Positions 4,184-55,200 of a stretch of 64,000 nt of DNA are shown here, in pieces. The notes under the pieces were generated by a model that searched no databases, was not told the origin of the DNA, and saw only the letters and a list, made by a program, of their open reading frames with translations. Both the position numbers and the translations under genes were made by a program. This stretch comes from Yuukianura sp. NJ FZ-2021. Lineage: Eukaryota. The stretch covers positions 11,160,001 to 11,224,000 of the forward strand of contig CM102290.1 of assembly GCA_046563655.1 (NCBI GenBank), given 5' to 3'. Positions within the stretch are counted from its first letter, which is position 1. Each line of letters opens with the position of its first letter.

Positions 4184-5288
4184 TTTGTAGAAGCCTGTAA
4201 ACTAGCAAAATTTGAAAAGACCATAAAACAATTTTTAAAATAATAATACAAAAGTTAGTTTTTTTTTTTGAAAACTAACTACACTACAAAAAGTGGAAGA
4301 AAGAAAGCAACTCCAAAGACAGAAAACTGTTGGAAACTACAAAGGAATTTTTCGAAAAAGGCGAAATGGAAAAGAAGCCACACAAATTTTCGTTTTGCTT
4401 TTTCAAGAGTACCTGTGGAATAGGAACAACAAAATTCTAAAGGTTTTTTTTTTATTGAAAAGGGACCCAAAAGTGTAAATTAATTTTTGTAGGGCTTTTT
4501 TAACAATTTTTTGTTCATAATATATATGCTGGTGGAAGCTGGAGTAAAAAGAGTGTTCTGGAAGTGACAACTTGTAGTGTTACATCCAGAACCAAAGGGA
4601 AAGGAAGCGAGAGTACTTTTGAAGTTCTTTTGAAATTTAAACACTCCCGCCCTTTTTTCTTGGGGATCATTTTCTTGAACAAGGTCTGTTCTGAACAGAT
4701 CTTGTTCTGAACATGGAGATGGTCTAAAGAATTCGTGATTGGGATATTGGATTATTTCCAAAATTGGATTTTCATTCACTCCATCATCGCACCACCGGCA
4801 AGGCAGTACAATGCCCATCTTTTCCTTCGCGGCAAATTTCAAAACCTCTCAAGATTCTCATCTTCAGCAGCATCCAGCATTCCCTGCATTTCTCCACTTT
4901 CACTATACGCTTTCTTCAATAGAACAGGAATGAGTCGTACCAAAAAACTTTGAAATCGCTCATTTAGTACCGTCACATTCCGTGCAAAACTTGGGCGCAT
5001 TTTGCATTTAGCACAGAAAAAAACTTTACTAAAACAAGAATTCAAAGTCTGAAATTAAGCTCAAAGAATACGATTATCCAAATCTAGCCTGACTCTTAAT
5101 CCACCTAATACAACACCTTGACTCTTCAAGTCTCAAAAACTTAAAAACAAAAATCAAAATCCAATTTTGGCTAAACCCCCACCACTGGGATTTTGTTTTT
5201 TAACAAAAAATAGATGAGTTTTTTTGGTATTCAGTATAATAACATGCAATTAATGGCAATCTTAAGTGACGCGTTGAATATTACTATA

Positions 5289-5462
5289 CTCTAAATTTCA
5301 TATTAAATTTCTAGCTTTTTGAAATTTGGAATTTTCCTTATATTATTCTCTAAATTTCATATTAAATTTCTAGCTTTTTGAAATTCGAAGATTTCCTTAT
5401 ATTATAACTCTAAATTTCATATTAAATTTCTAGCTTTTTGAAAGTTGAAATTTTTCTTATAA
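5289..5462. repeat. Three-copy 59/60-bp tandem repeat
   Basis: CTCTAAATTTCATATTAAATTTCTAGCTTTTTGAAA... starts at 5289, 5348 and 5408. Confidence 0.9.
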
Positions 5463-6254
5463 TATTATTTACTTATTATACTTGAATTGTTTATAATGAA
5501 CTTCCCTCGGGGAATTTGTGTCGCAACGGGTTGACCTTTGACCCTTACGGTGAAAATGTTAGGTTAGAGTCGACAGACGTGTAGGATTGATGTGAGTTAA
5601 GGTGCCAAAGGGAGCGGCAGTGTGTGGGCGTGAGGACTTGAATCCATGAATAACTCAAGCAAAAGGCAAAGAAAGTGGGGAAAAGCCTTTTCGAACTTTC
5701 CCTCTCGGCATTTTTTAAGATTAAACCTAGGAAAAGCGGCAAAAGATGTTTTCATTTCCGTTTGTAAATTCCCACCGGAGTACAAGGCGTAAGATCTATA
5801 TCGCCGGTGGGACTTTTTACTTTTCAAAATTTCCTAACCTCTGAGTCGGGTTAAATAAATTTATGGAAGCGAAGCAAATGTGTTCACATTTTTGATTTTG
5901 GGGGATTTTGCTCGTGTGATATTGATTAGTTTTTGGAAACAAGAACACTTTTCAAGAGAAGTTTTCTGTTTGATTCCAAACGAAGAGGTCACTTGGTCTT
6001 GGAACCTGATACAACCAGGCACTTCCAGTCAAACCTACCTTCGCACAGCGGCGAAAAAAAGAGGAAACTTCAGTTTCAAGCCAGTTTCGCACTGGAAAAG
6101 TCACTTTCGCTGTTTCTGAGTGTTAAGAAGTCAAATGTGACACACTTTAAGTCAAATTGCTGATGCTGCGTTGGTTCAGCGATAGTGAACCTGAACAAGG
6201 TCATTGACCTTTAATTTCCGCGTGAAGCCTTGCTTAAGTTTGACAGTTTGAGTG

Positions 6255-6318
6255 ATGGATCTAATGGAACCTTGGGATCCGCTTGACCATCCTCCTCGCA
6301 TCGAAATTAGAAGACAAG
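6255..6318 (+). CDS. Putative first coding exon of the CCP6-like gene (MDLMEPWDPLDHPPRIEIRRQ-)
   Basis: ATG at 6255 is open to the donor CAAG|GTAAAA at 6319. Its phase 1 matches the acceptor at 7341/7342. There is an in-frame stop just upstream and an acceptor-like TTTGACAG at 6239-6246. No homology support. Confidence 0.5.
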
Positions 6319-9300
6319 GTAAAATTACTCAATTGTAAATCGGCAGAACCGTCGGAGGTCAAAGTTCAAACATTTCCTCCCGGGTGGTTTTTCCCTGCTA
6401 TTGTTGATGAGTCAAAAAGTCAAACGTCATAGTTGTAGCCTATTAGCACAATCAGGGCAGCATTCAGCCTCAAGCATTACTGTACTGTATTAGCTTTATA
6501 CTTGTTTGACCTCCACCACCTTCAGGTCAATGATCAAATTTCAAAACTTGTAATAGAGCTGAATGACCTTGAAGCCTGGGCCAGTTTTCAGCATCAGTAC
6601 AACTAACGTTAGTAAATGTCAAAAATTAGCCAGTCGCCACGTTGAACTTGGAGCGTTACTTATTTGAGAGGTCAAAGGTCCTTGTGCCATGTCCTTTAAA
6701 GCCAAGGGAGGCCAGAGTAATTGAGAAGTAAGAAAAAAACTCGGACTTTTGGAAAATGAAATTTGAAACTTTTTTTAACAGTAAATAAAATCCCTATTGA
6801 TTTTCCCAGGATTGTGAGAGATCTTTTAGTGAAAGTTGTGCTTGTTCTCTTCACTTTCTTTGATCTTGGATGGATTTTGAGGTTGGAGCTAAGTAGCATC
6901 TTTAGCTCTTGGCCAAAATCTCGTTCTCTTCCGATTTTTTTTGAGAAACTAGATCCTACAGGAAATTGGATCTAATCGTCCATGTGAAGAAGCAGTTTCA
7001 AAACCAACATACTAGAAGTGAAACAGAGGAAAAGTGGTTCAAATTCAAAGCAAAATCAAACACAACATCCCATATCCTCGGAGGGAAATTCCAAATTGAA
7101 ACTCAATTTCTCGAAATTTAATGTTCACGTATCGTTCACGCATGAATCGCTTACCGCACATTTTCAAATCTAAAAAAGGATTTCAAAAACTTAATAAAAA
7201 TCGGAACTTTCCGTCTAAAAATGAAATAGAAGATTCTAAATCGAAAAAAAAGCTTTACGGATTCTTGACATGCGACTTTCTCTTTTGTGTTTTATTTTTT
7301 ATGTTGTTCATTTTGTTTGAAGGTTTTAAATTTTTTTGTAGACAGTGACGATAGTGATGCAGAAGGAGGACTGGGAAATGTTACGCGTGTTGTTCTGCGA
7401 CCTCCAGGTCATTCTGGAAAGGCTAAGCGAGGTCACCTATCATTTGACGCTTCCTTTGAAACCGGTAATCAATTGAAACCAAACCACCCTAGGTTAACCC
7501 CAAGCGTTTTTTTTTAACTCAGTTTGTGACCTTTGACCTTTGATATTTTTTCAGGAAACCTTGGGCGGGTAGATTTCATTTCAGAATTTGAGTACGACTT
7601 GTTCATACGTCCGGACACTTGCAACCCGCGTTACCGCCTTTGGTTCAACTTTGTTGTCGACAACGTCCGTGCCGACCAGCGCGTCATCTTCAACATCGTC
7701 AACCTATCCAAGCCTAGAAACTTGTTTTCTAGCGGAATGACTCCATTGGTCAAAACGACCAGTCGACCAAGATGGTTCTTTGACATGCTTAGTTAGCCTA
7801 AATTAATATCGTGAATACATTAACTTAAATTTAGATGAGATAGTTTAATCTGATTGAAATTGATAGCTAACTTAACATATTGACATTTAGGCAGCGGTTG
7901 GGAGACAAGTACGTGTACTACCATAAGTCACCGGAACATCGTAATCACTACATCCTCTCTTTTGCCTTTGTGTTTGACCGTGAAGATGACGTATACCAAT
8001 TCGCATTGACGTTCCCTTACTCCTACGCTCGACTGGATCTACACTTGACCTTTCTTCTGGAAAAGAACTTGCCTTGGCTCACCGTTCAAACTCTGGCAAA
8101 ATCACTCGTACGGTTTAGTTATCTGTGTTAACTATATACATGTATACGGAAATCTAGCCTAAAAAAATATAAAATATAGTATTTTACCATCTTTCTTGAC
8201 TTAACGTAACATTATTGTATTTCACGTATAATCTGTTGTAATACTAATGCGGAGATGTAAGTCCGCTACTGCATAGTTATCGACTGGTTTTCAAGGGAGG
8301 GATATGAGGGGAGATCCGTCCCATCAACACAGATTTGTTTTTCACTTTCGTCCCAACCCCGCTGAAAAAATTTTTTCACAAAAAAGAAAAAAGAATTTTT
8401 TTTGACCAAATTTTTCAAAAAATTTAGTTCTTCCTTCTCACTGTTTCAAATTTTATAAATGTTATAACACTGTCCTAATCATACCTTTGTCTTAATTTTT
8501 AGCAAAGTCGTGAGGTTCGAATTTACACAATTTGTAACCCGAGTATTCTGGATAAGAAACCGAAAACAGTCGTTCTTATGAGTAGGATTCATGCAGGAGA
8601 TTCACCTACGTCATATGTTGTTCAAGGTAAGTTATACAAAGTATACTCCATCAAATTATATATAAATTAATACAATAATATAAAAAGTTAATTCTTTTTG
8701 TAACTACAAAATGGAAAGGACTCATAGACTTTCTGCTGAGTAGTCACCCCATGTCGGGCGTCATACGAGACCATGTTGTCATCAAGATAATTCCAATGGT
8801 CAATCCAGATGGCGTCTTCATTGGAAATCAGCGGTAATTTTAATTTTCAGAACTTTAACTCTCACATTGCATTTTTTTCTTACATTATTTGTTGATTTCA
8901 GAACTTCACTAATGGGATACGACCTTAACCGACACTGGAATCAAATATCGCCTTTCGCTCATCCCGTCCTTCATTCGCTCAAAAACTACTTCCAAGAATT
9001 AGATCGGGATAAGGTTATTATGTCAAAAAAATTGTTTTAAAATTTAAAAAATTTCCGAAAAATCAAATTTTATTTTTTTAGACAATTGAATTAGATATGA
9101 TATTTGACCTTCATGCTGATACCGGCCTCCTTGGAACATTCATCTACGGCAATTCCTACGAAGACGTTTATCGGTGGACATAAAAACCAAAATATTTAAC
9201 ATCTTTGTTTTTGGAGTTTTGATTTTTGTTCAAAATCTGGAATTGGGTGTGTTTTTTTAGATTTGAAAGACACATTTTGTTTCCAAAACTCTTGGCTCAC

Positions 9301-11862
9301 AATACGGAAGACTACAACGTCAACTACACAATGTACAATCGTGATCCTCACAAAGCTGCTACAGCTCGGCGTTACCTCTGCGACAACCTTCGAAGTGGCG
9401 TTAACATCTACACGCTGCAAATTTCAATCTACGGCTACATCCAACAGGTCAACGGAGTCAGCCACACTGTTCCATACAACGAAGACTCATGTAAGTAATA
9501 CCAACATAAGGTTAAGCTTTGACCCTACCGTCAAGGTTCCTTGACAACGAAATGTTAATTTTCTTTAGCAGGCTGAGTACTACCTCGCTTGTTGACAAAA
9601 AAATGAAAAAAAAAGTGGTACCAATTCGTATGGAAATTTTTTGTTAAATTTGGCTGTATTATCATGACTACGATGCACTGAAATGAAAAGTTGCAAAATC
9701 GAAATAGCCATAAGAGGTAGAAAGGCCAAAGGGTGGAGAAAAGTGTTTATGAATACTTTCTCTTCCCCTCAGCTCCCCCCCCTCTCCGATGTTTATCGGC
9801 CTCACAGTTTCGCCGAAGCCGTGAGATTTGGATAGTGGGGTTTTCAGTGGGGTGACCGCTGGTATAGCTTAGGTGTAATGTTGAGTGATTTCTCTTCCCG
9901 CCATCACCGGATATATGGTGATATACGGACTCAGACTCGTACGATTTGATTGGCGGTTGGATTCAGACTCATAGAGCCTGATTGGTTCCATATCTAAACC
10001 TATTCATAAAAACTCTATGACGTGGGGGTGCATTAGTTTGGCCTTTCTACCTCTTATGGCTATTCTTTGAAAAGTTGCAAAATCGAAATAACATGAAGTA
10101 TTACCAGAGGCGCAAAACATATTTTCTTACATATTACATATTTTTATATTTTTAAAAAATATTTCTTGAAAAATAATACAAAAAATACTTAGCAAAATAT
10201 TCTAAGATTTTGCCAAAAAAGTGGCATTTTTGCAACATTTTAGTCACATTTGTCATGCACAAATCGTTTACAAAGGGTCCATGTAGTGTTGGGATAATTT
10301 TTCTTTATATAATTTTCAAAAATAGTCACAACGTAGCCACAACATAGTCACAACATAGCCACAACATAGTCACAATATAGCCACAACATAGTCACAATAT
10401 AGCCACAACATAGTCACAACATAGCCACAACATAGTCACAACATAGTCACAACATAGCCACAACATAGTCACAATATAGCCACAACATAGTCACAACATA
10501 GCCACAACATAGTCACAACATAGCCACAACATAGTCACAACATAGCCACAACATAGTCACAACATAGTCACAACATAGCCACAACATAGTCACAATATAG
10601 CCACAACATAGTCACAACATTTTTACTACATATTTACATACATATTTCACCGGTTCTAACAACATATGTTTTGCGCCTCTGGGTATTACCCAACCTGATG
10701 AAGAAAAGCAAAGTCAACAAACCTTGCCTACGGTTAACTTTTGACCTCAAAGCGTTAGAAACTGACCCTGACTTGGTATATCTTTGTAGATTTCCGACTT
10801 GGCCGAAATTTGGCTCGAACTTTTGCCGAATACTACCGAGTCACGGGTATTATTCCACCGAAAACATATATTGCAGCTATGCCTACACAATTGGGTCCAG
10901 ACGAAGATGCTCAAAAGAAACGAATAGTTCGGAGATCAAGGTCAAGGTCTAAACCCCGAACTCTGCCGAAACAGAAACCTGAAGAACCAAAGGAGGACGA
11001 AGATGATGCTGATGCCACTCGGGTTCTGAAACTGTCCAATCATAAAGCAGAGTTATCCGATAGTTCTAGTGAGAGTATTTACGACTCGGGATCCGAAAAT
11101 GAACGATTCAGTAATCCTGGATCACTCAATCAAGATTTTGGTGAAACCGAAGAGTTCATTTTAACGGAAGCCGTCGCGGAATCTGAAGATGAACGCATGC
11201 GTGAACAAGCAGTGATTCTGGCAAGTCCACAAGGGCTCACGAGTTACAAGCACCAATCAGAAGCTCCCAAGCGACCGACGTTCACCACCTTTGATTTTAG
11301 TGCTCTGACGACAAACAAAGGTCAAATGTTGACGAATTTTGAATTTGCAAGTGGAAGCGAGAAAGGAAGAAAAGTTGGAGGCGGTGGATTTCTGGGAAAA
11401 CACAGTCGAAAATCTACGAACAAAGCTGAGTCCAAATTTTTAATCAGCCAGCCAGAAGAATTTCCAAACTCCCCGTTTCTGACAATAATCGACTTCAATC
11501 AGCTAATCAGAATGGGAGAGGAACAAAAACGTTATGAAACGAACCCAACAACTCATCAACGTAGAGATAAACACAATAATGTACGTATTCGTCGTCAGAG
11601 GTTACGAAGGGTCAAAGGTCAAAGGTCAGTGACAACTGATGGGTCAGGATGGGACGATACGTCTTCTGACTCTGAAGGTGAGAGACAGTTCTTAATCAAC
11701 TACGGTCAGCAGTCTTCGATGATGCAAAATTCCAGCGTAGGCGTAAATCATCACAAAATGAATCTAAATCCAAGGGAGAAAAGACGTAGAGAACGGCGTG
11801 CCCGGCAGGAAGAAATAACTGAACGTAAACTAGGAAATCATGTCACATTTTTAATGAATTAA
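6255..11862 (+). CDS. AGBL4: Cytosolic carboxypeptidase 6-like (M14D, CCP6/AGBL4 family) with substituted catalytic residues; ~789 aa, 10 exons
   Basis: Hand-spliced join(6255..6318,7342..7464,7555..7774,7891..8107,8503..8626,8719..8833,8902..9013,9082..9173,9261..9490,10790..11862). All introns are GT-AG, phases are consistent, total 2370 nt. CCP motifs: PPGHSGKAKRGHLSFDASFETGNLGR, EYDLFIRPDTCNPRYRLWFNF, FPYSY, IIPMVNPDGV, DLNRHW, DLH, FIYGN, YFRLGRNLARTF. Exons 2-10 are well supported; exon 1 is tentative. Confidence 0.9.
9703..10064. mobile_element. MITE-like non-autonomous element with 28-bp perfect terminal inverted repeats, in intron 9 of CCP6-like gene
   Basis: AATAGCCATAAGAGGTAGAAAGGCCAAA (9703-9730) is the exact reverse complement of 10037-10064. 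No internal ORF; the interior is GC-richer than the rest of the intron. Confidence 0.8.
10105..10681. mobile_element. hAT-like MITE (18-bp TIRs starting CAG, near-perfect 8-bp TSD)
   Basis: CAGAGGCGCAAAACATAT (10105-10122) pairs with ATATGTTTTGCGCCTCTG (10664-10681). Flanks are AGTATTAC (10097-10104) and GGTATTAC (10682-10689), a 7/8 match. CAG-start TIRs and 8-bp TSDs are typical of hAT elements. Confidence 0.8.
10322..10620. repeat. 11-bp minisatellite (CACAAYATAGY)n, ~27 copies, inside the hAT-like MITE
   Basis: Directly visible; CACAACATAGT and CACAACATAGC units mostly alternate. Confidence 0.95.
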
Positions 11863-12543
11863 TACTATAAACTATTTATTAAAAATTACTGACGTGAATT
11901 AAAAAAAAACTTTCAAAAAAATCAAGTCCACGTTTTTTTTTTGTGAGGAAATCTGCTAGGAATTTGGACGGCAAACCACCTTGATTGCAAAGTCGTATAG
12001 AACAAACCACCTTGGTTGCGAAGTTGCAAAAGAAAGTTTGCGCTGTACAGAAGCAGAGAAATACAAGTTCAGTTGCACATATAATTTATTGAATTGCCAG
12101 ATTCTAACCATGGTTAAGTTTAATGTGTGTATCAAAATATCGGTTAGGAATAGTAGGATATGATTTTAGCATTCACTTTCTCCGTCCGTTGTAACATGAC
12201 TCTACCTCTTCTTCTGCCTTCCGTTGAGGAGGGACTGACTAAACTTAGTTTCTATTAGGACGGAACAAAGTCTCCAGCAGTTTTAAGTAACACAATTCCG
12301 TTTGATAAGGCGTTTATTTCGTAGGTACAGGTTGAATTAATCATGAAAGGTCAAAGGTCACGGGCTAGCTTATGCTCAACGATAGTCTGCCATTTCTTGG
12401 TCTGACAGAACGACAAAATGTCAATCTGAAAACAAATGAAAAGCGATCAAAAGGTTTTTCTTTTCACATCTTGGATTCTTCGAAATTTTGGCTTAATTTT
12501 TTATGATTTCTTTGAAAATTGTTGAGAACTTACACTTTAGGAA

Positions 12544-15500
12544 TTAAGCGATGAGTGGTTTAGTATTTTTGGGGGCCGGGGAGACAGAGCGTGTAGTCTT
12601 CTTCCGCGTCGCTGTGCGTCCATTGGTGGGACTATAAGTTAGGTTAGTTAAACATGTAAATTTAATTGGAATTAAATTACTTTTATTTAAATGTTAAGGT
12701 CAAAGGTCACACGACGTACCCCGGTATGACTTTAGTCCCTTGGACGGGAGGGAGTGATTCGGCTGATCCACCGGACTTTAGACTGCCACCGGAACTGTCT
12801 CTGGATCCCACCTTGTCCCACGACTGCGTTTTGCGATGAGTCTTGGCTGCTGAATCTCCCACTCCATTACTAAAAGTAGTAAAAAGTTTTTAAATACTGA
12901 AATTTTGTTCAAAAATTAAAAAAAAATGAAGCTGAAATAATTACGGTTTTCCAATACGACGCTTCTCCAGTTCTCGGCTAATGGAATCTGGTATGTGCTG
13001 CGGCGGAGAGACGGATTTGACTTTCGCGGGGGTTTGAGGCTGCAAAAAATATATTAAAAAATTATATGAGTTTTAATTATAAAAACTAATTAAATGAGTT
13101 ATATTATACTATTAATGTGTAAAAACTAATTAATTTTACTTTAATCCTAGATTCTTCAGCGTCAAACATATCTTCAGCCTCCTCTCTTCCTCTGCCCGCC
13201 ACAAGCTCGTCGTCCGACTGTGACTTGACGATTCTATCTGCCGAATAGGATGGCCGCGCTGGGGCAATGGGAGACCGACACACTGCAGAGTTAACATCTT
13301 CGAGTTTGCGCAGAAGTCTTTCATTTTCTCGACAAACCAACTCCTGATCTCGAATGAGCAAATCTCGAACAGCAATTAGTTCCCAGTTCTCCTGACGCAG
13401 TGAGGCATTTTCAGCTAGGAACTGATGCACTGTTTCCACAAGTTGCGTTTGTTCCATCTCCTCAACTTTTTCTTTGTCCAGTGTTGATGCAACACCGTTC
13501 GGATTCACGACGCCCCAGTTCGAGTCTCCGCTGCTGTCACTGTCAACGTGCAGCAGTTGACGCAATTGCGTATTTTCATCACGAAGCGACGATAGTTCAC
13601 GTTTCAAGCTCATTATCAGAGCCTCTCGTGGATCCTAGAAATTACAAAATCAAATTCGTCAAGAAAGTTCCACCAGGTAAACAATGTAAAAAAGTCAAAA
13701 TGAGTGGAAAAAGACTAAGTTTAGGCAGTTGCACCTAACAAGGTTTGTGAACTTTGATTTCCTTTAATAGGTTGAGTAATACTTCATGTTTTTTTCGATT
13801 TTGCAAAAAAGAGTGTTTTTCATTTCATGGTATCGTAGGCATAACAACACTGCTGAATTTTCTAAATTTTATATACGAATTGGTACAATGTTTTGGACTG
13901 GTACCAAATTGCTACCAATGTTTGTTTGTTTTTCATTCTTTTGTCAACAATGCGAGCAATAGTACGAACAATAGCACTCAACCTATTAAAGAAAATTCAT
14001 TTTTCGTTTCCAAGGAACCTTGGCACCTACCATGACTACGACAGGTTTGGTCCGTATTCTTTTGGCTCTAGCGGCATACCGAAGTGTATTGAGCGTTTCG
14101 CTCATGTTTGATCTTGCTGGGGAAATACATGCAATCTACAAAAACAAAATCATTCGGTACAAGTTTCAACCCAAATTTTCAAAATTCCAAAAGCCAAACT
14201 TTGTTTTTTACCATCAGAGTTACTCCGTTTCCGGCAAGACTGTCAGCCAGAAGCTTCGTCAATTTGCTGTCTCTGTAAGGAATGTGTCCACTTTTTCGTT
14301 TTGAATCGCTTAAAGAAGCAATACAGTAACCCAGCACCATTAGACTTTTGTTGATATTGTTCGCTTCTTCCAGCGTCTTCCCTTCACTATGTGTTTTCTT
14401 AGTCATTTCACTTCCCGCGAGATCAACGAAATTCAATTTCCCATGTCGACTGATGAACACGCCCTGCTCAGAGGCCTTCTGCTCCGAAGTAATATGCACA
14501 GTCAGAATGGTGTGACTTCGACTTGAGTACTCGTTCATGTTATGTTTACCAACAGCTCGATTGCGCATGCCTACAAAGATGATGAATTCGTGTTACTAAT
14601 TGTACAAAAGTTTAAAAAAAAAGTAGTCTTTGCATTTACAATAGGTCATTGTAGCTAAAATGAAAGTCGCGAATTCAAATAAGCGCGAAAGAAAATGGAA
14701 TGTCAACATTTGATTTGTGTTAGCCTAATTTCACAGTTGGTTTCCTATTTCTGCTATGTTAGATTATGTAGATTACGCTGTTTACGATTTTCGTTGCTTT
14801 CGACTACTAGTTTTGCTCTAATGGGTTCTAATAGTTTCGATTTTCTAAAAATGTGCTACAAGGTGGTTCATTTTCTAAAAATTTGGTTCAAATTGACTCA
14901 TTTTGAAAAACTAAGCGACTGACCTTCTTCCAAAACGGCCAGCAGATCATCGAATTCTTCACACTCAACCATGAAGAGGTTCTCGACGAAGAACCCACGT
15001 GACTTTTTGGACCACCGAACAGCGAGTGGCTTCCGAGCAGTTCCCGGGTTGAGGAGGTCAATGACCTGCGTTTAAAGTTCATACTTGAAGTTTTGGACAG
15101 TTATACTTCCCTAACATCATCGTTGCATTGCATGTGTGAACTTAAAGCTGGAAGTGTAAGTGGATCGATTCAAAGCGACACCAAATAATGCATGAGTCAG
15201 GCATAAACAGCGGGAGGGAAGTTTGGACAGAGGAGTTGGCATGACGACATGAGAAAAAACAACAACAAATGAAAAAAAATCAAATGTAACCTTTTCATTG
15301 TAGATTTCAAGAAATGAGGCTTTCAGGATGAAGTGGAAGTCATTACGGTTTTGAATTTGATCAAAAAGATACAAAAACGAACGAAAGACTAGACCGTGGT
15401 CCACTGCAAACGGATCCGGATTTTTTTCAAACTGAAATTGCAAAGGTCAAAATTTTAAATTTTCATGAAGTCAAAGCTTCCAAGAGAAATCAAAACCAAA

Positions 15501-17757
15501 AGTAAAATTTTTCAAAAAATTAAAAATCAAAACTTTTCGGTTGCATACCAAATGCGGTGGTCCAGTGAGCGTATGAGTTTTACCAGATCCTGAAAAATGA
15601 ATTTGAATTTGAATTTGAAAAGTTGTCCAAATTTTTTTTTCCATTTTTTAAAATTTTGTCTTTCAAACCATACCGGTTTGACCGTAGCAAAACACAGTGC
15701 ATGAAAATCCGTCAATTGCCATTTCAATGAGTCGTTTGACGCCTGAATGGTTGAGGACGTCCTCTTGCGTCGCTTCCGGTTCAAAAACGACGTTGTACGT
15801 AAACGATTTCGGTTTCTCTTTTGCCGTTGAACTTTCGAGCCAAATTTGACCTCCGCCGGGAAAATGCGTCACGTTCGAATCCCGGGTCAGTTCTTTTCCA
15901 TTAAGTGGACGAACTCTGTCAGGTCAAAATCAAAGGTCAAATTTCAAGAGGTCAAGAAACAATTTTCTTGGCTACACAGCAAAGCGAATTTCTTTTTTCT
16001 GCCGCGTGGCTTTCTAAGACCTTCGATTGTAAGAAAAACTCTAAATAATTGGAATGGCCCACCAATTAATTTTTAAACTCAGTTTGGATTCTTAAATTTT
16101 GAAAAATTCGTTTCCTTCTTACGTACACACCCAATGTATATTTAATAAATGTCAAGGTTGTAGACGCTTTTTAGAAAATTGGCTTTTGTTCTAAACTGTG
16201 ATCAAACAAACTTATGAAAAACTGACGTAAAGCTGGAACTTTCAAATGCTGACGTTTGATGCTCTTTTACTTTTCCTATTGACGTTTAGTTTTACGAACA
16301 GTTGAATTTCCAATTGTTATTTACACAAACTTATTTGTTTCTATATTTGAACATGTTGAAACTGTTTTTCAGATTTCCTGCTACACGTGCTTTGTTTCAA
16401 AAACGTTACGTTCCACTTTGTTACATTTTCTGAGAAACGGAACAAGTTTCAATTTCAGTTTGAACTGAAATTGGATTTCCCAATTTCCTCGTGTGTTAAA
16501 CTGTCGACGCGTGTTAAATTAACAGAACTGTGTCGCCAGTGTCGGAAATCATGTCCAATCACTTTCTTAACTTTGAAAAATTTGAATTTTTTTGAAAAAT
16601 AAAAAAGTTTGTTCAAAATGAAAACTTACCTTACGACGACGTTGATGTTGTTCTTGTCCTGGAGTTCCATGTCCAAATCAGCGGCATCCAACGTAAGTAG
16701 CGAGCTGGCGCTTCCCAGTCCAGAACTCATACTTCACAGCGTTCAATTAAAAAAACGAAAACCCAGTGAAAAAGAACAGAAAAGAAAAGGAGACATTAAA
16801 TGAGAAATGAGCTGCCATGAATTCTTGATTTGTTCAATGTCGAAAGTTGTCAAACAGGGTTCGGCTATTTCAAAAAAATTCGTTTCGGGAGGTTTCCTTT
16901 TTAAATTGCCGCTAATTTTTGTTTTCCAAGTTTCGAAATTTATTTGCCATTAAACAATAATAACGATCCTTTAAAGTTGACATTGCTATTCTCGGATCGC
17001 CACAAAAAGAAAAAACTTGAATTTTTAAATGTTTTTTTTTACCTTGAGCTTGTGAATGACATTGACAAGGCGAAACATTTTTGTTCAATTGCTTCAATAA
17101 CTTGAACTTAATTAGCCAATGGCTAAAAAATCCACTTAGACCTAAGTGAGTAATCATCGATTTTGTAAACTGCTTTTAGAATTCCGTAAACTGCGTATGC
17201 GCTCAGACGTGAAATTGTGACGGTATAATTTGACCTTAAATTTTCCTGTGACGCCATAAAACGTTCGAATTGAGCAGAAGAAATTTTATCCAATTCCCTA
17301 TCATTAAATACTGAATTTGAGCAAAATGCCATCAAAATCCGGTATGGGAGTCAGATTTTTAAAAAATGGAAAAAAAAATGTTACGGTATCCCATTAGTAA
17401 ATGCTTGAGGTTTTTTGAAATGCTAAATTCTAATTTTTCAATATCTTGTCATTGATATCGTAAATTTGACTGTCGTAGGTTTGTAAGTTTGAAATGGTAT
17501 AAAAACGTTCTTCTGAACTGCTGGTTTTTGAACAATTCCACTTTCTTCGAAATTGTTTAAAATTTGTTTAAAATTTCGACATGGGTTTTCAAAAACAAGT
17601 GACAAGCACAGAGAATTATGTACCTGTTATGTGTGAATGTCGCGATGGATGAATTTGTTGAAGGGCGCTGAAACATAAACGTTGTTGGAGGCGGGAGTTG
17701 TGAAGAGCCTGGACTTCGTGCTGACTGGAGCCCTTTGACATCTGAGGAACTAACCAT
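12544..17757 (-). CDS. KIF12: Kinesin-like protein, KIF12 (kinesin-16) type; ~697 aa, 12 exons
   Basis: Hand-spliced complement(join(12544..12631,12720..12869,12945..13039,13140..13634,14031..14135,14212..14570,14924..15065,15291..15431,15549..15589,15674..15915,16630..16731,17624..17757)). Phases are consistent, total 2094 nt. Motor motifs are intact: NINVVVRVRP, P-loop [19 protein letters not shown], switch I NEYSSRSH, switch [34 protein letters not shown]12-type segments [10 protein letters not shown] and [13 protein letters not shown] are followed by coiled coil. The terminal exons are less certain. Confidence 0.88.
17624..17757 (-). CDS. Putative first coding exon of KIF12-like gene ([24 protein letters not shown]...)
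   Basis: ATG in a strong ACCATGG context. The donor AACAG|GTACAT is phase 2, which fits the AAG acceptor before 16731 (preceded by a pyrimidine-rich tract). An alternative start at ATG 16730 is possible. Confidence 0.6.
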
Positions 17758-52200: not shown

Positions 52201-55200
52201 GTTAAAAGTTTAGTAGGAAAATCACTCTTTCTAAATAGCATAATTCCAAATTCCAAAAAGTTAAAAGTTTAGTAGGAAAATCACTCTTTCTAAACAGCAT
52301 AATTCCAAATTCCAAAAAGTTAAAAGTTTAGTAGGAAAATCACTCTTTCTAAATAGCATAATTCCAAATTCCAAAAAGTTAAAAGTTTAGTAGGAAAATC
52401 ACTCTTTCTAAATAGCATAATTCCAAATTCCAAAAAGTTAAAAGTTTAGTAGGAAAATCACTCTTTCTAAATAGCATAATTCCAAATTCCAAAAAGTTAA
52501 AAGTTTAGTAGGAAAATCACTCTTTCTAAATAGCATAATTCCAAATTCCAAAAAGTTAAAAGTTTAGTAGGAAAATCACTCTTTCTAAATAGCATAATTC
52601 CAAATTCCAAAAAGTTAAAAGTTTAGTAGGAAAATCACTCTTTCTAAATAGCATAATTCCAAATTCCAAAAAGTTAAAAGTTTAGTAGGAAAATCACTCT
52701 TTCTAAATAGCATAATTCCAAATTCCAAAAAGTTAAAAGTTTAGTAGGAAAATCACTCTTTCTAAATAGCATAATTCCAAATTCCAAAAAGTTAAAAGTT
52801 TAGTAGGAAAATCACTCTTTCTAAATAGCATAATTCCAAATTCCAAAAAGTTAAAAGTTTAGTAGGAAAATCACTCTTTCTAAATAGCATAATTCCAAAT
52901 TCCAAAAAGTTAAAAGTTTAGTAGGAAAATCACTCTTTCTAAATAGCATAATTCCAAATTCCAAAAAGTTAAAAGTTTAGTAGGAAAATCACTCTTTCTA
53001 AATAGCATAATTCCAAATTCCAAAAAGTTAAAAGTTTAGTAGGAAAATCACTCTTTCTAAATAGCATAATTCCAAATTCCAAAAAGTTAAAAGTTTAGTA
53101 GGAAAATCACTCTTTCTAAATAGCATAATTCCAAATTCCAAAAAGTTAAAAGTTTAGTAGGAAAATCACTCTTTCTAAATAGCATAATTCCAAATTCCAA
53201 AAAGTTAAAAGTTTAGTAGGAAAATCACTCTTTCTAAATAGCATAATTCCAAATTCCAAAAAGTTAAAAGTTTAGTAGGAAAATCACTCTTTCTAAATAG
53301 CATAATTCCAAATTCCAAAAAGTTAAAAGTTTAGTAGGAAAATCACTCTTTCTAAATAGCATAATTCCAAATTCCAAAAAGTTAAAAGTTTAGTAGGAAA
53401 ATCACTCTTTCTAAATAGCATAATTCCAAATTCCAAAAAGTTAAAAGTTTAGTAGGAAAATCACTCTTTCTAAATAGCATAATTCCAAATTCCAAAAAGT
53501 TAAAAGTTTAGTAGGAAAATCACTCTTTCTAAATAGCATAATTCCAAATTCCAAAAAGTTAAAAGTTTAGTAGGAAAATCACTCTTTCTAAATAGCATAA
53601 TTCCAAATTCCAAAAAGTTAAAAGTTTAGTAGGAAAATCACTCCTTCTANNNNNNNNNNNNNNNNNNNNNNNNNNNNNNNNNNNNNNNNNNNNNNNNNNN
53701 NNNNNNNNNNNNNNNNNNNNNNNNNNNNNNNNNNNNNNNNNNNNNNNNNAAAACGTTAAAAGTTTAGTAGGAAAATCACTCTTTCTAAATGACATAATTC
53801 CAAATTCCAAAAAGTTAAAAGTTTAGTAGGAAAATCACTCTTTCTAAATAGCATAATTCCAAATTCCAAAAAGTTAAAAGTTTAGTAGGAAAATCACTCT
53901 TTCTAAATGACATAATTCCAAATTCCAAAAAGTTAAAAGTTTAGTAGGAAAATCACTCTTTCTAAATAGCATAATTCCAAATTCCAAAAAGTTAAAAGTT
54001 TAGTAGGAAAATCACTCTTTCTAAATGACATAATTCCAAATTCCAAAAAGTTAAAAGTTTAGTAGGAAAATCACTCTTTCTAAATAGCATAATTCCAAAT
54101 TCCAAAAAGTTAAAAGTTTAGTAGGAAAATCACTCTTTCTAAATAGCATAATTCCAAATTCCAAAAAGTTAAAAGTTTAGTAGGAAAATCACTCTTTCTA
54201 AATAGCATAATTCCAAATTCCAAAAAGTTAAAAGTTTAGTAGGAAAATCACTCTTTCTAAATGACATAATTCCAAATTCCAAAAAGTTAAAAGTTTAGTA
54301 GGAAAATCACTCTTTCTAAATGACATAATTCCAAATTCCAAAAAGTTAAAAGTTTAGTAGGAAAATCACTCTTTCTATATAGCATAATTCCAAATTCCAA
54401 AAAGTTAAAAGTTTAGTAGGAAAATCACTCTTTCTAAATGACATAATTCCAAATTCCAAAAAGTTAAAAGTTTAGTAGGAAAATCACTCTTTCTAAATGA
54501 CATAATTCCAAATTCCAAAAAGTTAAAAGTTTAGTAGGAAAATCACTCTTTCTATATAGCGTAATTCCGAATTCCAAAAAGTTAAAAGTTTAGTAGGAAA
54601 ATCACTCTTTCTAAATGACATAATTCCAAATTCCAAAAAGTTAAAAGTTTAGTAGGAAAATCACTCTTTCTAAATGACATAATTCCAAATTCCAAAAAGT
54701 TAAAAGTTTAGTAGGAAAATCACTCTTTCTAAATGACATAATTCCAAATTCCAAAAAGTTAAAAGTTTAGTAGGAAAATCACTCTTTCTAAATAGCATAA
54801 TTCCAAATTCCAAAAAGTTAAAAGTTTAGTAGGAAAATCACTCTTTCTAAATGACATAATTCCAAATTCCAAAAAGTTAAAAGTTTAGTAGGAAAATCAC
54901 TCTTTCTAAATGACATAATTCCAAATTCCAAAAAGTTAAAAGTTTAGTAGGAAAATCACTCTTTCTAAATAGCATAATTCCAAATTCCAAAAAGTTAAAA
55001 GTTTAGTAGGAAAATCACTCTTTCTAAATGACATAATTCCAAATTCCAAAAAGTTAAAAGTTTAGTAGGAAAATCACTCTTTCTAAATGACATAATTCCA
55101 AATTCCAAAAAGTTAAAAGTTTAGTAGGAAAATCACTCTTTCTAAATAGCATAATTCCAAATTCCAAAAAGTTAAAAGTTTAGTAGGAAAATCACTCTTT

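Follow-up and report, generated by a model that had tools for sequence, protein, structure and literature searches.

The tubulin glutamylation code is written by TTLL glutamylases and erased by CCPs, and to our knowledge its dedicated readers are poorly defined. If a CCP6 kept its zinc and glutamate-binding pocket and lost nothing but the general base, it would be an obvious candidate for a reader, or for a protector. A preliminary description of the window (the whole stretch of 64,000 nucleotides analysed here) had claimed an intact CCP6/AGBL4-like gene with an active site that looks dead. The locus raises three questions: whether this gene is real and complete, whether its product can still cut and, if it cannot, what the gene is maintained for.

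The claim of an intact gene held up on splicing. The gene lies on the + strand at 6255-11862 in ten exons, giving a frame of 2370 nt and 789 codons in which all introns are GT-AG and the sole stop is terminal. Its parts are as follows.

Exon 1, 6255..6318, + strand: start codon and 21 codons; donor after 6318, phase 1
Exon 2, 7342..7464, + strand: acidic stretch, GNV..RPPGHSGKAKRGH and the start of the F-E-T-G-N-L motif, which belongs to the CCP N-domain; supported by tblastn with mayfly CCP6
Exon 3, 7555..7774, + strand: CCP N-terminal domain; Pfam PF18027 and tblastn
Exon 4, 7891..8107, + strand: remainder of the N-domain with the VYYHK and FPYSY motifs; tblastn of mayfly CCP6
Exon 5, 8503..8626, + strand: H-A-G-D, the first zinc motif, with His69 as residue 238 and Glu72, changed to Asp, as residue 241; the X1 and X3 contigs match this exon exactly
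Exon 6, 8719..8833, + strand: NPDG and GNQR; Arg127 is residue 288
Exon 7, 8902..9013, + strand: DLNR; Asn144/Arg145 are residues 297/298
Exon 8, 9082..9173, + strand: D-L-H-A-D-T-G; His196 is residue 336 (9112-9114) and His198, changed to Asp, is residue 338 (9118-9120)
Exon 9, 9261..9490, + strand: K-A-A-T-A-R-R, with Lys250 as residue 387 and Arg255 as residue 392; also Y-T-L-Q-I-S, with Glu270 changed to Gln (CAA, 9418-9420) as residue 409
Intron 9, 9491..10789, + strand: 1299 nt, full of high-copy repeats
Exon 10, 10790..11862, + strand: end of the carboxypeptidase domain (Y-F-R-L-G-R-N-L), charged tail of ~340 residues and stop TAA at 11860-11862

Exon 1 is a putative assignment, made from its ATG, donor, phase and resemblance rather than from a transcript. 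It is the sole upstream ATG exon with a good donor, the right phase and a product like the N-terminus of the mayfly Cloeon protein; that product reads ..DPL..RRQ|D-SDDSD. Taken as single pieces the exons give modest Pfam scores, PF18027 on exon 3 falling below its cut-off of 23.2 (20.8 bits, E 4.5e-4) and PF00246 on exon 6 lying at the cut-off (21.6 bits).

Homology and tree position identify the gene as the CCP6/AGBL4 orthologue in a springtail-like hexapod. The motifs F-E-T-G-N-L, V-Y-Y-H-K and F-P-Y-S-Y in exons 2-4 are those of the CCP N-terminal domain, for which the cited passages of PMC4230590 name the motif types FESGNL, WYYY and YPYTY. The M14 carboxypeptidase domain is homologous along its whole length, as in other members of the M14D family, and the orthologues carry both PF18027 and PF00246. 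The best matches are all named CCP6: the spliced 430-residue core is 55.6% identical to weevil CCP6 over 439 columns (BLASTP, E 0.0), and identity reaches 64.7% over 428 columns with mayfly CCP6 and 50% with the lamprey and Ciona CCP6 rows. In trees built from CCP6 sequences only, the window's gene forms a clade with Folsomia and Orchesella CCP6 (100/100 support), and this springtail group sits in a single arthropod CCP6 clade that tracks species groups (99-100 support). A tblastn search with three orthologues found no second CCP6 copy or alternative exon 9 within the 64-kb window.

Direct reading of the codons bears out the three altered motifs first noticed at this locus. The first zinc motif is R-I-H-A-G-D-S-P, with Asp for Glu72 (GAT at 8599-8601); the second, at 9106-9126, keeps His196 and has Asp for His198; the general-base motif is YTLQIS. 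Zinc-ligand positions 69, 72 and 196 are thus His, Asp and His, and Asp72 may still serve as a ligand; of 132 long orthologues, 121 have Glu at this position. The remainder of the pocket is present as first described. GNQR, DLNR, NPDG and KAATARR can all be read in the spliced protein, and both zinc histidines and all five residues that bind the carboxylate and side chain (Arg127, Asn144, Arg145, Lys250 and Arg255) are kept.

Sequence matches to solved CCP5 and bacterial CCP structures stop before the Glu270 region, so the assignment of position 270 rests on multiple alignments. In an alignment of 151 rows (150 library representatives and the window's protein), 14 rows are gapped at the column that holds the Gln and 121 of the other 137 have Glu; the alignment of this column is therefore beyond doubt. 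The general base of an active M14 metallocarboxypeptidase is accordingly replaced by Gln. Mutants engineered at this position in mouse (CCP1 Glu1094, CCP2 Glu593, CCP3 Glu540) are described in the cited passages of PMC4230590, which report those of CCP2 and CCP3 as enzymatically dead. Given the dead Glu270 mutants of CCP1-3, the window's CCP6 would be unable to hydrolyse at a normal rate. The same passages assign S1' specificity to residues 250/255 and the shaping of S1 to 198/201. The suggestion that the changes fall on catalysis rather than on binding is thus too simple at His198, where binding is affected too.

The codons themselves are real. Contigs from three DNA runs of one sample, runs that may be the assembly's own data and so perhaps not independent of it, carry the same three codons, at depths of ~119 to 235. 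Run X1 matches across 9252-9494 with no differences and across 8496-9015 with three, all away from codon 8599-8601; run X3 matches across 8428-8940 and 9343-9529 with none and across 9002-9346 with two, both at 9037/9039. Run X4, which comes from a second study, spans 9276-9428 and differs there at 3-5 unlisted positions; it leaves 8532-8993 uncovered. Restoration of Glu by RNA editing is ruled out, as A-to-I editing does not convert CAA to a Glu codon.

The gene is under purifying selection, in agreement with the earlier view that it is conserved rather than decaying. Among the variants listed (40 rows, with 129 further rows besides), synonymous changes make up 11 of the 14 in exons of the N-domain and carboxypeptidase domain, where a fraction of 0.228 would be expected (binomial p=1.6e-5), exon 3 of the N-domain having seven synonymous and no non-synonymous changes; in the tail 3 of the 9 listed are synonymous (p=0.31). 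The protein keeps 145 of 155 columns conserved at >=90%, and its 10 deviations may be set beside a median of 2.5 and a 90th percentile of 13 among 132 orthologues. A further sequence, P0001, is the 260-residue product of an 834-nt contig from a different organism, intron-free across five exons of the window's gene. Over exon 9 the two proteins share 70% identity, and P0001 reads Y-T-L-Q-V-S, so the Gln is common to both. Selection and this transcript-like contig together hint that the gene may be expressed. With its catalytic residue gone and the gene under purifying selection, the window's CCP6 is probably a pseudoenzyme, its inactivity being predicted from sequence.

The reading we favour is that this intact, maintained gene encodes a zinc pocket able to hold C-terminal glutamates but not to cut them, and we consider it probable. 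The product retains the CCP N-domain, the M14 fold and both zinc histidines, and the carboxylate clamp Arg127/Asn144/Arg145 and the acid-specific S1' residues Lys250/Arg255 would provide the grip. With the general base Glu270 replaced by Gln, and with Asp standing in for both Glu72 (a zinc ligand) and His198 (an S1 residue), putative binding of zinc and of C-terminal glutamate would persist, and the protein could bind glutamylated proteins, tubulin tails for example, without trimming them. It might read the mark, shield it from active CCPs, or serve at centrioles and cilia as a scaffold that depends on the pocket; the binding or shielding of polyglutamate first proposed for this gene fits the retained pocket. 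Against the favoured reading, continued catalysis predicts retention of the zinc site equally well, the negative charge of Asp198 in S1 should weaken binding of a polyglutamate chain, and Asp72 may loosen the binding of zinc.

Loss of Glu270 is not peculiar to the genome of the window and recurs in arthropod CCP6 orthologues. Glu270 is absent from 67 of 149 named arthropod CCP6 representatives, present in 81 and gapped in one; none of 11 non-arthropod representatives has lost it. The form without Glu270 is the only CCP6 sampled in Lepidoptera (30/30), Hemiptera (8/8) and decapods (6/6), and is found in 14 of 22 Hymenoptera. The replacement varies by lineage, being Leu in most Lepidoptera, Ile/Leu/Asn in Hemiptera and His/Asn/Gln/Tyr in decapods. 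The rest of the pocket is nearly invariant in the 67 sequences, with His69, His196, Arg127, Asn144 and Arg255 retained in all and Glu72 and Arg145 in 66 each. Overall conservation is alike with and without the general base (mean majority fraction 0.717 in 38 Glu270-less rows and 0.716 in 98 Glu270 rows of an earlier alignment, set 2). At least ten changes between Glu and non-Glu are required on a 76-row tree. These orthologues share with the window's CCP6 the loss and the retained zinc and binding residues. They differ in that Lepidoptera have lost Lys250 and that Asp72 is rare, being found elsewhere in Cyprideis and Bactrocera. Lepidoptera have also lost His198. Asp198 occurs in all 30 Lepidoptera and in the window's gene, which implies at least two independent origins, and in none of the 92 named rows with Glu270, whether from arthropods or from other animals. 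The same loss across insects and crustaceans hints at a non-cutting role.

These data bear on the possibility that the protein is still a hydrolase, slow or re-specified, that uses another general base (Asp198, or the His found at 270 elsewhere) or zinc-bound hydroxide alone. Continued chemistry would be expected to keep the zinc ligands and substrate residues as nearly invariant as described above, and the confinement of Asp198 to sequences without Glu270 would fit a substitute base, although two origins are too few for statistics. Furthermore, ants and bees with Glu are nested in the gene tree among Gln-bearing Hymenoptera, and therefore the pocket seems to have remained capable of supporting catalysis. 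Yet 37 of the 67 keep His198 and have at 270 a residue (Ile, Leu, Val, Phe, Asn or Gln) that leaves them without an obvious replacement for the base, and the dead CCP2 and CCP3 mutants argue in the same direction. Such hydrolysis is, in our judgement, unlikely.

A scaffold whose selected function is independent of the pocket, with a CP110-like partner held through the N-domain or the tail and the pocket kept for folding, seems improbable. A precedent exists in the portions of PMC10210458 cited here, where CCP5 curbs ciliogenesis without enzyme activity, even with its carboxylate-binding Arg mutated, and CCP6 likewise modulates CP110; this role in retaining CP110 and restraining ciliogenesis is known there from mutants of active mammalian enzymes, whereas the window's CCP6 is a natural arthropod sequence. 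The purely synonymous variants listed for exon 3 are also in keeping with a function of the N-domain. Unused pocket residues should drift, however, and Arg127, Asn144, Arg145, Arg255 and the zinc ligands are each kept in 66 or 67 of the 67. Drift did occur in the known M14 pseudopeptidases, nearly all of whose active-site residues are replaced according to the sections of PMC11266112 cited. That the gene is a recently disabled pseudogene, or its three substitutions errors of assembly, is close to refuted: release from selection would likewise be predicted to put three changes into a single active site, and the confirming runs have the uncertain independence noted above, but the ten-exon frame is open with every splice site intact, the synonymous excess among the listed domain variants and the retained columns are strong, P0001 from another organism has the Gln, and deep contigs agree at all three codons.

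The proposed non-cutting binder may be placed beside known systems. Mammalian CCP6/AGBL4, an M14D deglutamylase of tubulin and other proteins, belongs to the orthologous lineage and has the same N- and carboxypeptidase domains, zinc histidines, clamp and S1' pocket; the window's protein differs in Gln270, Asp72, Asp198 and its charged tail. The engineered mouse mutants are disabled at the same position and have an otherwise unaltered pocket, whereas the change here is natural, fixed in the contigs seen, shared with P0001 and accompanied by two further changes in the pocket. The M14 pseudopeptidases described in the cited parts of PMC11266112 and PMC7706225 (CPD domain 3, AEBP1/ACLP, CPXM1, CPXM2 and yeast Ecm14) are likewise predicted to be non-catalytic and thought to work by binding. 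They are secreted or extracellular members of the N/E and A/B subfamilies, while the window's CCP6 is of the cytosolic CCP type; and CPD domain 3 and AEBP1 have had nearly all active-site residues replaced, where the window's CCP6 has lost little beyond the general base. For the cytosolic CCP branch of M14 no pseudoenzyme is given in those sections of the 2024 review of metallopeptidase pseudoenzymes (PMC11266112). A literature search, with the 2013 FASEB J CCP phylogenomics and supplements outside its scope, found no description of a CCP pseudoenzyme or of active-site loss in arthropod CCP6.

A wider proposal is more tentative, and we regard it as possible though somewhat doubtful as a whole. 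Arthropod CCP6 might be an eraser turned reader of polyglutamylation, its pocket tuned to C-terminal or branch glutamates, with cutting switched off at least ten times and back on in the ancestor of ants and bees, where the cutting residue appears from the gene tree to have been restored. The window's gene would be a natural substrate trap, and Asp198 a second-step adaptation of the dead pocket, by charge compensation or as a relocated base. If the protein is a reader or protector, annotation as a deglutamylase would mislead in, for example, silkworm, aphid-like bugs, shrimps and parasitoid wasps. Repeated loss with the apparent regain in ants and bees also offers a natural test of the time for which an inactive site remains ready for catalysis.

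The tail encoded by exon 10 matches that of Orchesella CCP6 weakly (26% identity, E 1.7e-17); its weak Pfam matches to PF11330 and PF05501 (E 0.04-0.2) were taken as chance. Intron 9, just upstream, contains two elements bounded by inverted repeats, at 9703-10064 and 10104-10682, and an 11-nt tandem repeat at 10322-10620, and its contigs are hundreds of times deeper than those of the exons.

The preliminary description had claimed an intact CCP6-like gene with a dead-looking active site. Translation in three frames, with borders set at canonical GT-AG sites, shows 8581-9426 to be part of a spliced gene on the plus strand. The spliced coding sequence comprises 789 codons (2370 nt) with its sole stop at the end. 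All three altered motifs were read again where they had been reported, and the NPDG, GNQR, DLNR and KAATARR segments quoted alongside them are all present in the gene.

Features of the CCP6 gene
6255-6318, plus strand: tenth exon, a 5' exon predicted from sequence, with a start codon, the right phase and an N-terminus resembling that of the mayfly orthologue
7342-11862, plus strand: nine exons
8599-8601, plus strand: GAT in the first zinc motif, R-I-H-A-G-D
9106-9126, plus strand: second motif, D-L-H-A-D-T-G
9418-9420, plus strand: CAA in the general-base motif, Y-T-L-Q-I-S

The stretch is matched by five DNA sequencing runs, of which X1, X2, X3 and X5 come from one sample and X4 from another study with another organism label; none is recorded as RNA. 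The preliminary description had called for the codons to be checked in reads; contigs of X1-X4 were aligned on 7300-11900. An X1 contig (8496-9015) differs from the window solely at 8526, 8941 and 8975, and an X3 contig (9002-9346) solely at 9037/9039; two further X3 contigs (8428-8940 and 9343-9529) and a second X1 contig (9252-9494) show zero differences. The same three codons are recovered, at depths of ~119-235. An X4 contig covers 9276-9428 with 3-5 differences at unlisted positions. The X1 and X3 contigs exclude a consensus slip and little beyond that, and the runs may be the data from which the window itself was assembled.

Single exon translations gave Pfam matches to the CCP N-domain (PF18027, E 4.5e-4, exon 3) and to Peptidase_M14 (PF00246, exon 6, with 21.6 bits just reaching the cut-off); of the eight pieces, five had no Pfam match, which is to be expected of fragments. 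The 430-residue spliced core shows 50-58% identity over >400 columns to proteins named cytosolic carboxypeptidase 6 from weevil, Drosophila, brine shrimp, bed bug, Ciona and lamprey, and the mayfly CCP6 is 64.7% identical to the window protein. Among 5.8 billion proteins, the exon 9 translation found two matches. The first, P0001, has 260 residues from an 834-nt contig and spans without a break what corresponds to five exons of the window gene, and so resembles a spliced transcript; over exon 9 its identity is 70%, and its motif reads Y-T-L-Q-V-S. The second, P0002, is a garbled 227-residue product from a JGI metagenome that stops just short of the Glu270 motif and is therefore uninformative on that residue. 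Its final part matches the first half of exon 9 at 86% identity and follows an unrelated low-complexity stretch; a closer relative's contig was probably translated here without splicing. A quick tree of 76 rows gives one arthropod CCP6 clade (support 99) whose inner groups match orders; it is a single orthologous lineage rather than a set of old paralogues. A careful tree of 38 rows and 195 columns, built after removal of columns 198 and 270, joins the window protein to Folsomia candida, Orchesella dallaii and P0001 at 100/100. By this placement, a springtail or something close to it is the most likely source of the window.

An exhaustive HMMER search with P0001 returned 3516 relatives, and the best 150 of these were aligned with the window protein (151 rows).

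Active-site positions (CPA numbering): residue in the window protein; usual residue among rows ungapped at that column of the 151; rows keeping the usual residue among 67 arthropod orthologues that lack Glu270
69: His, residue 238; His in 95/104; 67/67
72: Asp, residue 241; Glu in 95/104; 66/67
127: Arg, residue 288; 67/67 keep Arg
144: Asn, residue 297; 67/67 keep Asn
145: Arg, residue 298; 66/67 keep Arg
196: His, residue 336; His in 142/147; 67/67
198: Asp, residue 338; His in 131/147
250: Lys, residue 387
255: Arg, residue 392; 67/67 keep Arg
270: Gln, residue 409; Glu in 121/137

According to PMC4230590, Glu270 is the essential catalytic residue: mouse CCP2 and CCP3 mutated at its equivalents are enzymatically dead, as is CCP1 mutated at Glu1094. 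The same text names positions 250 and 255 as the main S1' determinants, defines S2 by positions 127 and 145, and has S1 shaped by positions 198 and 201. Given these roles, the earlier view that the changes are concentrated on catalysis stands for Glu270 and Glu72, which affect chemistry; the third change falls in the S1 subsite and not in a zinc motif.

The gene is not decaying. Its frame is open and its splice sites are intact. Exon variants (letters from other haplotypes or strains) were classed by codon for 40 rows, with 129 further rows beyond these, in a listing unrelated to coding effect. Among the variants listed, 11 of the 14 that fall in the N-domain or the carboxypeptidase domain are synonymous (binomial p 1.6e-5, against a synonymous fraction of sites of 0.228), as are all seven in exon 3 (7/7) and three of nine in the C-terminal tail (p=0.31). 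At 155 columns that are >=90% conserved across 132 long orthologues, the window protein deviates from the majority residue at 10, mostly conservatively (Ser/Thr, Leu/Ile, Phe/Ile); the orthologues themselves deviate at a median of 2.5 (mean 4.8, 90th percentile 13). The window gene is a CCP6 orthologue that is intact, evolves under purifying selection and has no general base.

Alignment to orthologues of other taxa, also proposed in the preliminary description, reveals that the loss of Glu270 extends well beyond the window. From the 859 proteins that a profile search gave at E<=1e-30, the best 120, nearly all of them named, were used; a further search with P0001 added 108, with partial overlap. 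Short fragments and unnamed rows (Logan, metaclust, JGI and ENA) were set aside, and 160 named cluster representatives (149 arthropod, 11 other) were aligned to the window protein. Each row stands for a cluster at 90% identity, drawn from the upper part of two rankings, so that the counts are no census and the relatives are not independent. Glu270 is present in 81 arthropod rows, replaced in 67 and gapped in 1, and His69, Glu72, His196 and Glu270 are all kept in only 71/149. The non-arthropods (molluscs, annelid, flatworm, sponge, hemichordate, tunicate and lamprey) are intact in 11/11.

Residue at position 270 in arthropod CCP6
Lepidoptera, 30 rows: Leu 26; Ile, Val, Thr and Ala 1 each
Hemiptera, 8 rows: Ile 5, Asn 2, Leu 1
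Decapoda, 6 rows: His 3; Asn, Gln and Tyr 1 each
Hymenoptera, 22 rows: Gln 10, His 3, Leu 1, Glu 8
Diptera, 40 rows: Glu 39, Asn 1
Coleoptera, 26 rows: Glu 24, Gln 1, gap 1
Polyneoptera, 5 rows: Glu 4, Gln 1
Other crustaceans, 6 rows: Glu 2; non-Glu 4 (brine shrimp Asn, two barnacle rows Val, Daphnia Phe)
Thrips, 1 row: Phe
Flea, 1 row: His

Position 270 must have switched between Glu and non-Glu at least 10 times on the 76-row tree. In all 30 lepidopteran rows Asp198 goes together with loss of Lys250 and with a residue other than Glu at 270, in most cases Leu; their branch is very long (1.21 changes per column in the careful tree of 38 rows). Within the Hymenoptera, sawflies, parasitoid wasps, a bethylid and Vespula carry Gln, His or Leu, and the gene tree nests the Glu-bearing ants and bees among Gln-bearing wasps and sawflies. 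The cheapest reading, which also depends on the order-level relationships, would be one loss and then one regain of Glu270 after a long dead phase. Other positions change too: Glu72 is Ala in four calyptrate flies that keep Glu270 (Lucilia, Cochliomyia, Musca and Glossina), His69 is Asn in Folsomia and Tyr in Apis dorsata, and the ostracod Cyprideis has HAGD, as does the window gene.

In an earlier alignment of CCP6 orthologues, the mean majority fraction over columns 30-430 was 0.717 in the 38 rows without Glu270 and 0.716 in the 98 rows with it. Known M14 pseudopeptidases differ: in carboxypeptidase D (CPD) domain 3 and in AEBP1 almost every active-site residue is replaced, according to PMC11266112. 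That the metal site and the glutamate-gripping residues are fixed over whole orders while only the base is lost argues for a pocket still in use.

An M14 enzyme without Glu270 has no useful turnover of its substrate. The window protein would still bind zinc, Asp72 being a plausible putative ligand, and would still bind a C-terminal acidic residue through Arg127, Asn144, Arg145, Lys250 and Arg255; glutamylated tails would thus be held untrimmed. Such holding could amount to reading the mark, shielding it from active CCPs or anchoring at glutamylated structures. On balance, we favour the window CCP6 as a probable non-cutting binder of glutamylated tails. The family already has a function independent of catalysis: ciliogenesis is suppressed via CP110 even by inactive CCP5 mutants, and CP110 is also modulated by CCP6 (both from PMC10210458).

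The main rival, that chemistry goes on with a substitute base, we regard as possible though rather unlikely. Asp198 adjoins the zinc site, has at least two independent origins and is confined to rows lacking Glu270, namely the Lepidoptera and the window gene, being found in 0/92 named rows that keep it; the apparent regain in ants and bees is also in favour of this reading. Against it, 37 of the 67 orthologues without Glu270 keep His198 together with an aliphatic or amide residue at 270, and an Asp in S1 would be expected to repel the glutamate chain. A scaffold that makes no use of the pocket is improbable, the frozen pocket being hard to reconcile with it. A pseudogene, one of the cases that the preliminary description had named as refuting its claim, or an artefact is highly improbable, contradicted by the intact frame and splice sites, the synonymous excess, the conserved columns and the agreement of the contigs.

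The literature searched yielded no account of a pseudoenzyme of CCP type, nor of arthropod CCP6 lacking catalytic residues, and prior notice is possible. The M14 pseudopeptidases of a 2024 review are four from vertebrates plus yeast Ecm14, with none from the cytosolic branch in the part of the text available (PMC11266112). Pseudoenzymes as such are already known; what would be new is one in the M14D branch with its pocket otherwise intact.

In the charged and otherwise fast-evolving exon 10 tail, 11410-11517 has short matches to the CCP6 tails of mayfly (44%, 43 residues) and Orchesella, and these suggest a short conserved motif. The 1.3-kb intron 9 holds two elements with inverted-repeat flanks, and its contig depth exceeds that of the exons by factors of tens to hundreds, with parts bridged by other contigs; the elements look like high-copy MITE-like insertions. 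In the window, a microtubule motor gene adjoins this gene of the tubulin code.

Surroundings of the gene
5285-5465: short second period-59 array with another consensus
9491-10789: intron 9
9703-9730 and 10037-10064: 28-nt perfect arms of its first element
10104-10129 and 10657-10682: 26-nt arms of its second element
10322-10620: 11-nt tandem repeat in intron 9, 27 copies
13104-15900, minus strand: kinesin motor-domain gene, convergent with the CCP6 gene (PF00225, E 1.2e-44 on 14179-14592; weaker piece at 15117-15446)
19294-64000: 59-nt satellite filling the final 44.7 kb of the window, with 758 copies, 98% matches, GC ~0.26 and strong skew, broken by a 100-N run at 53650-53749
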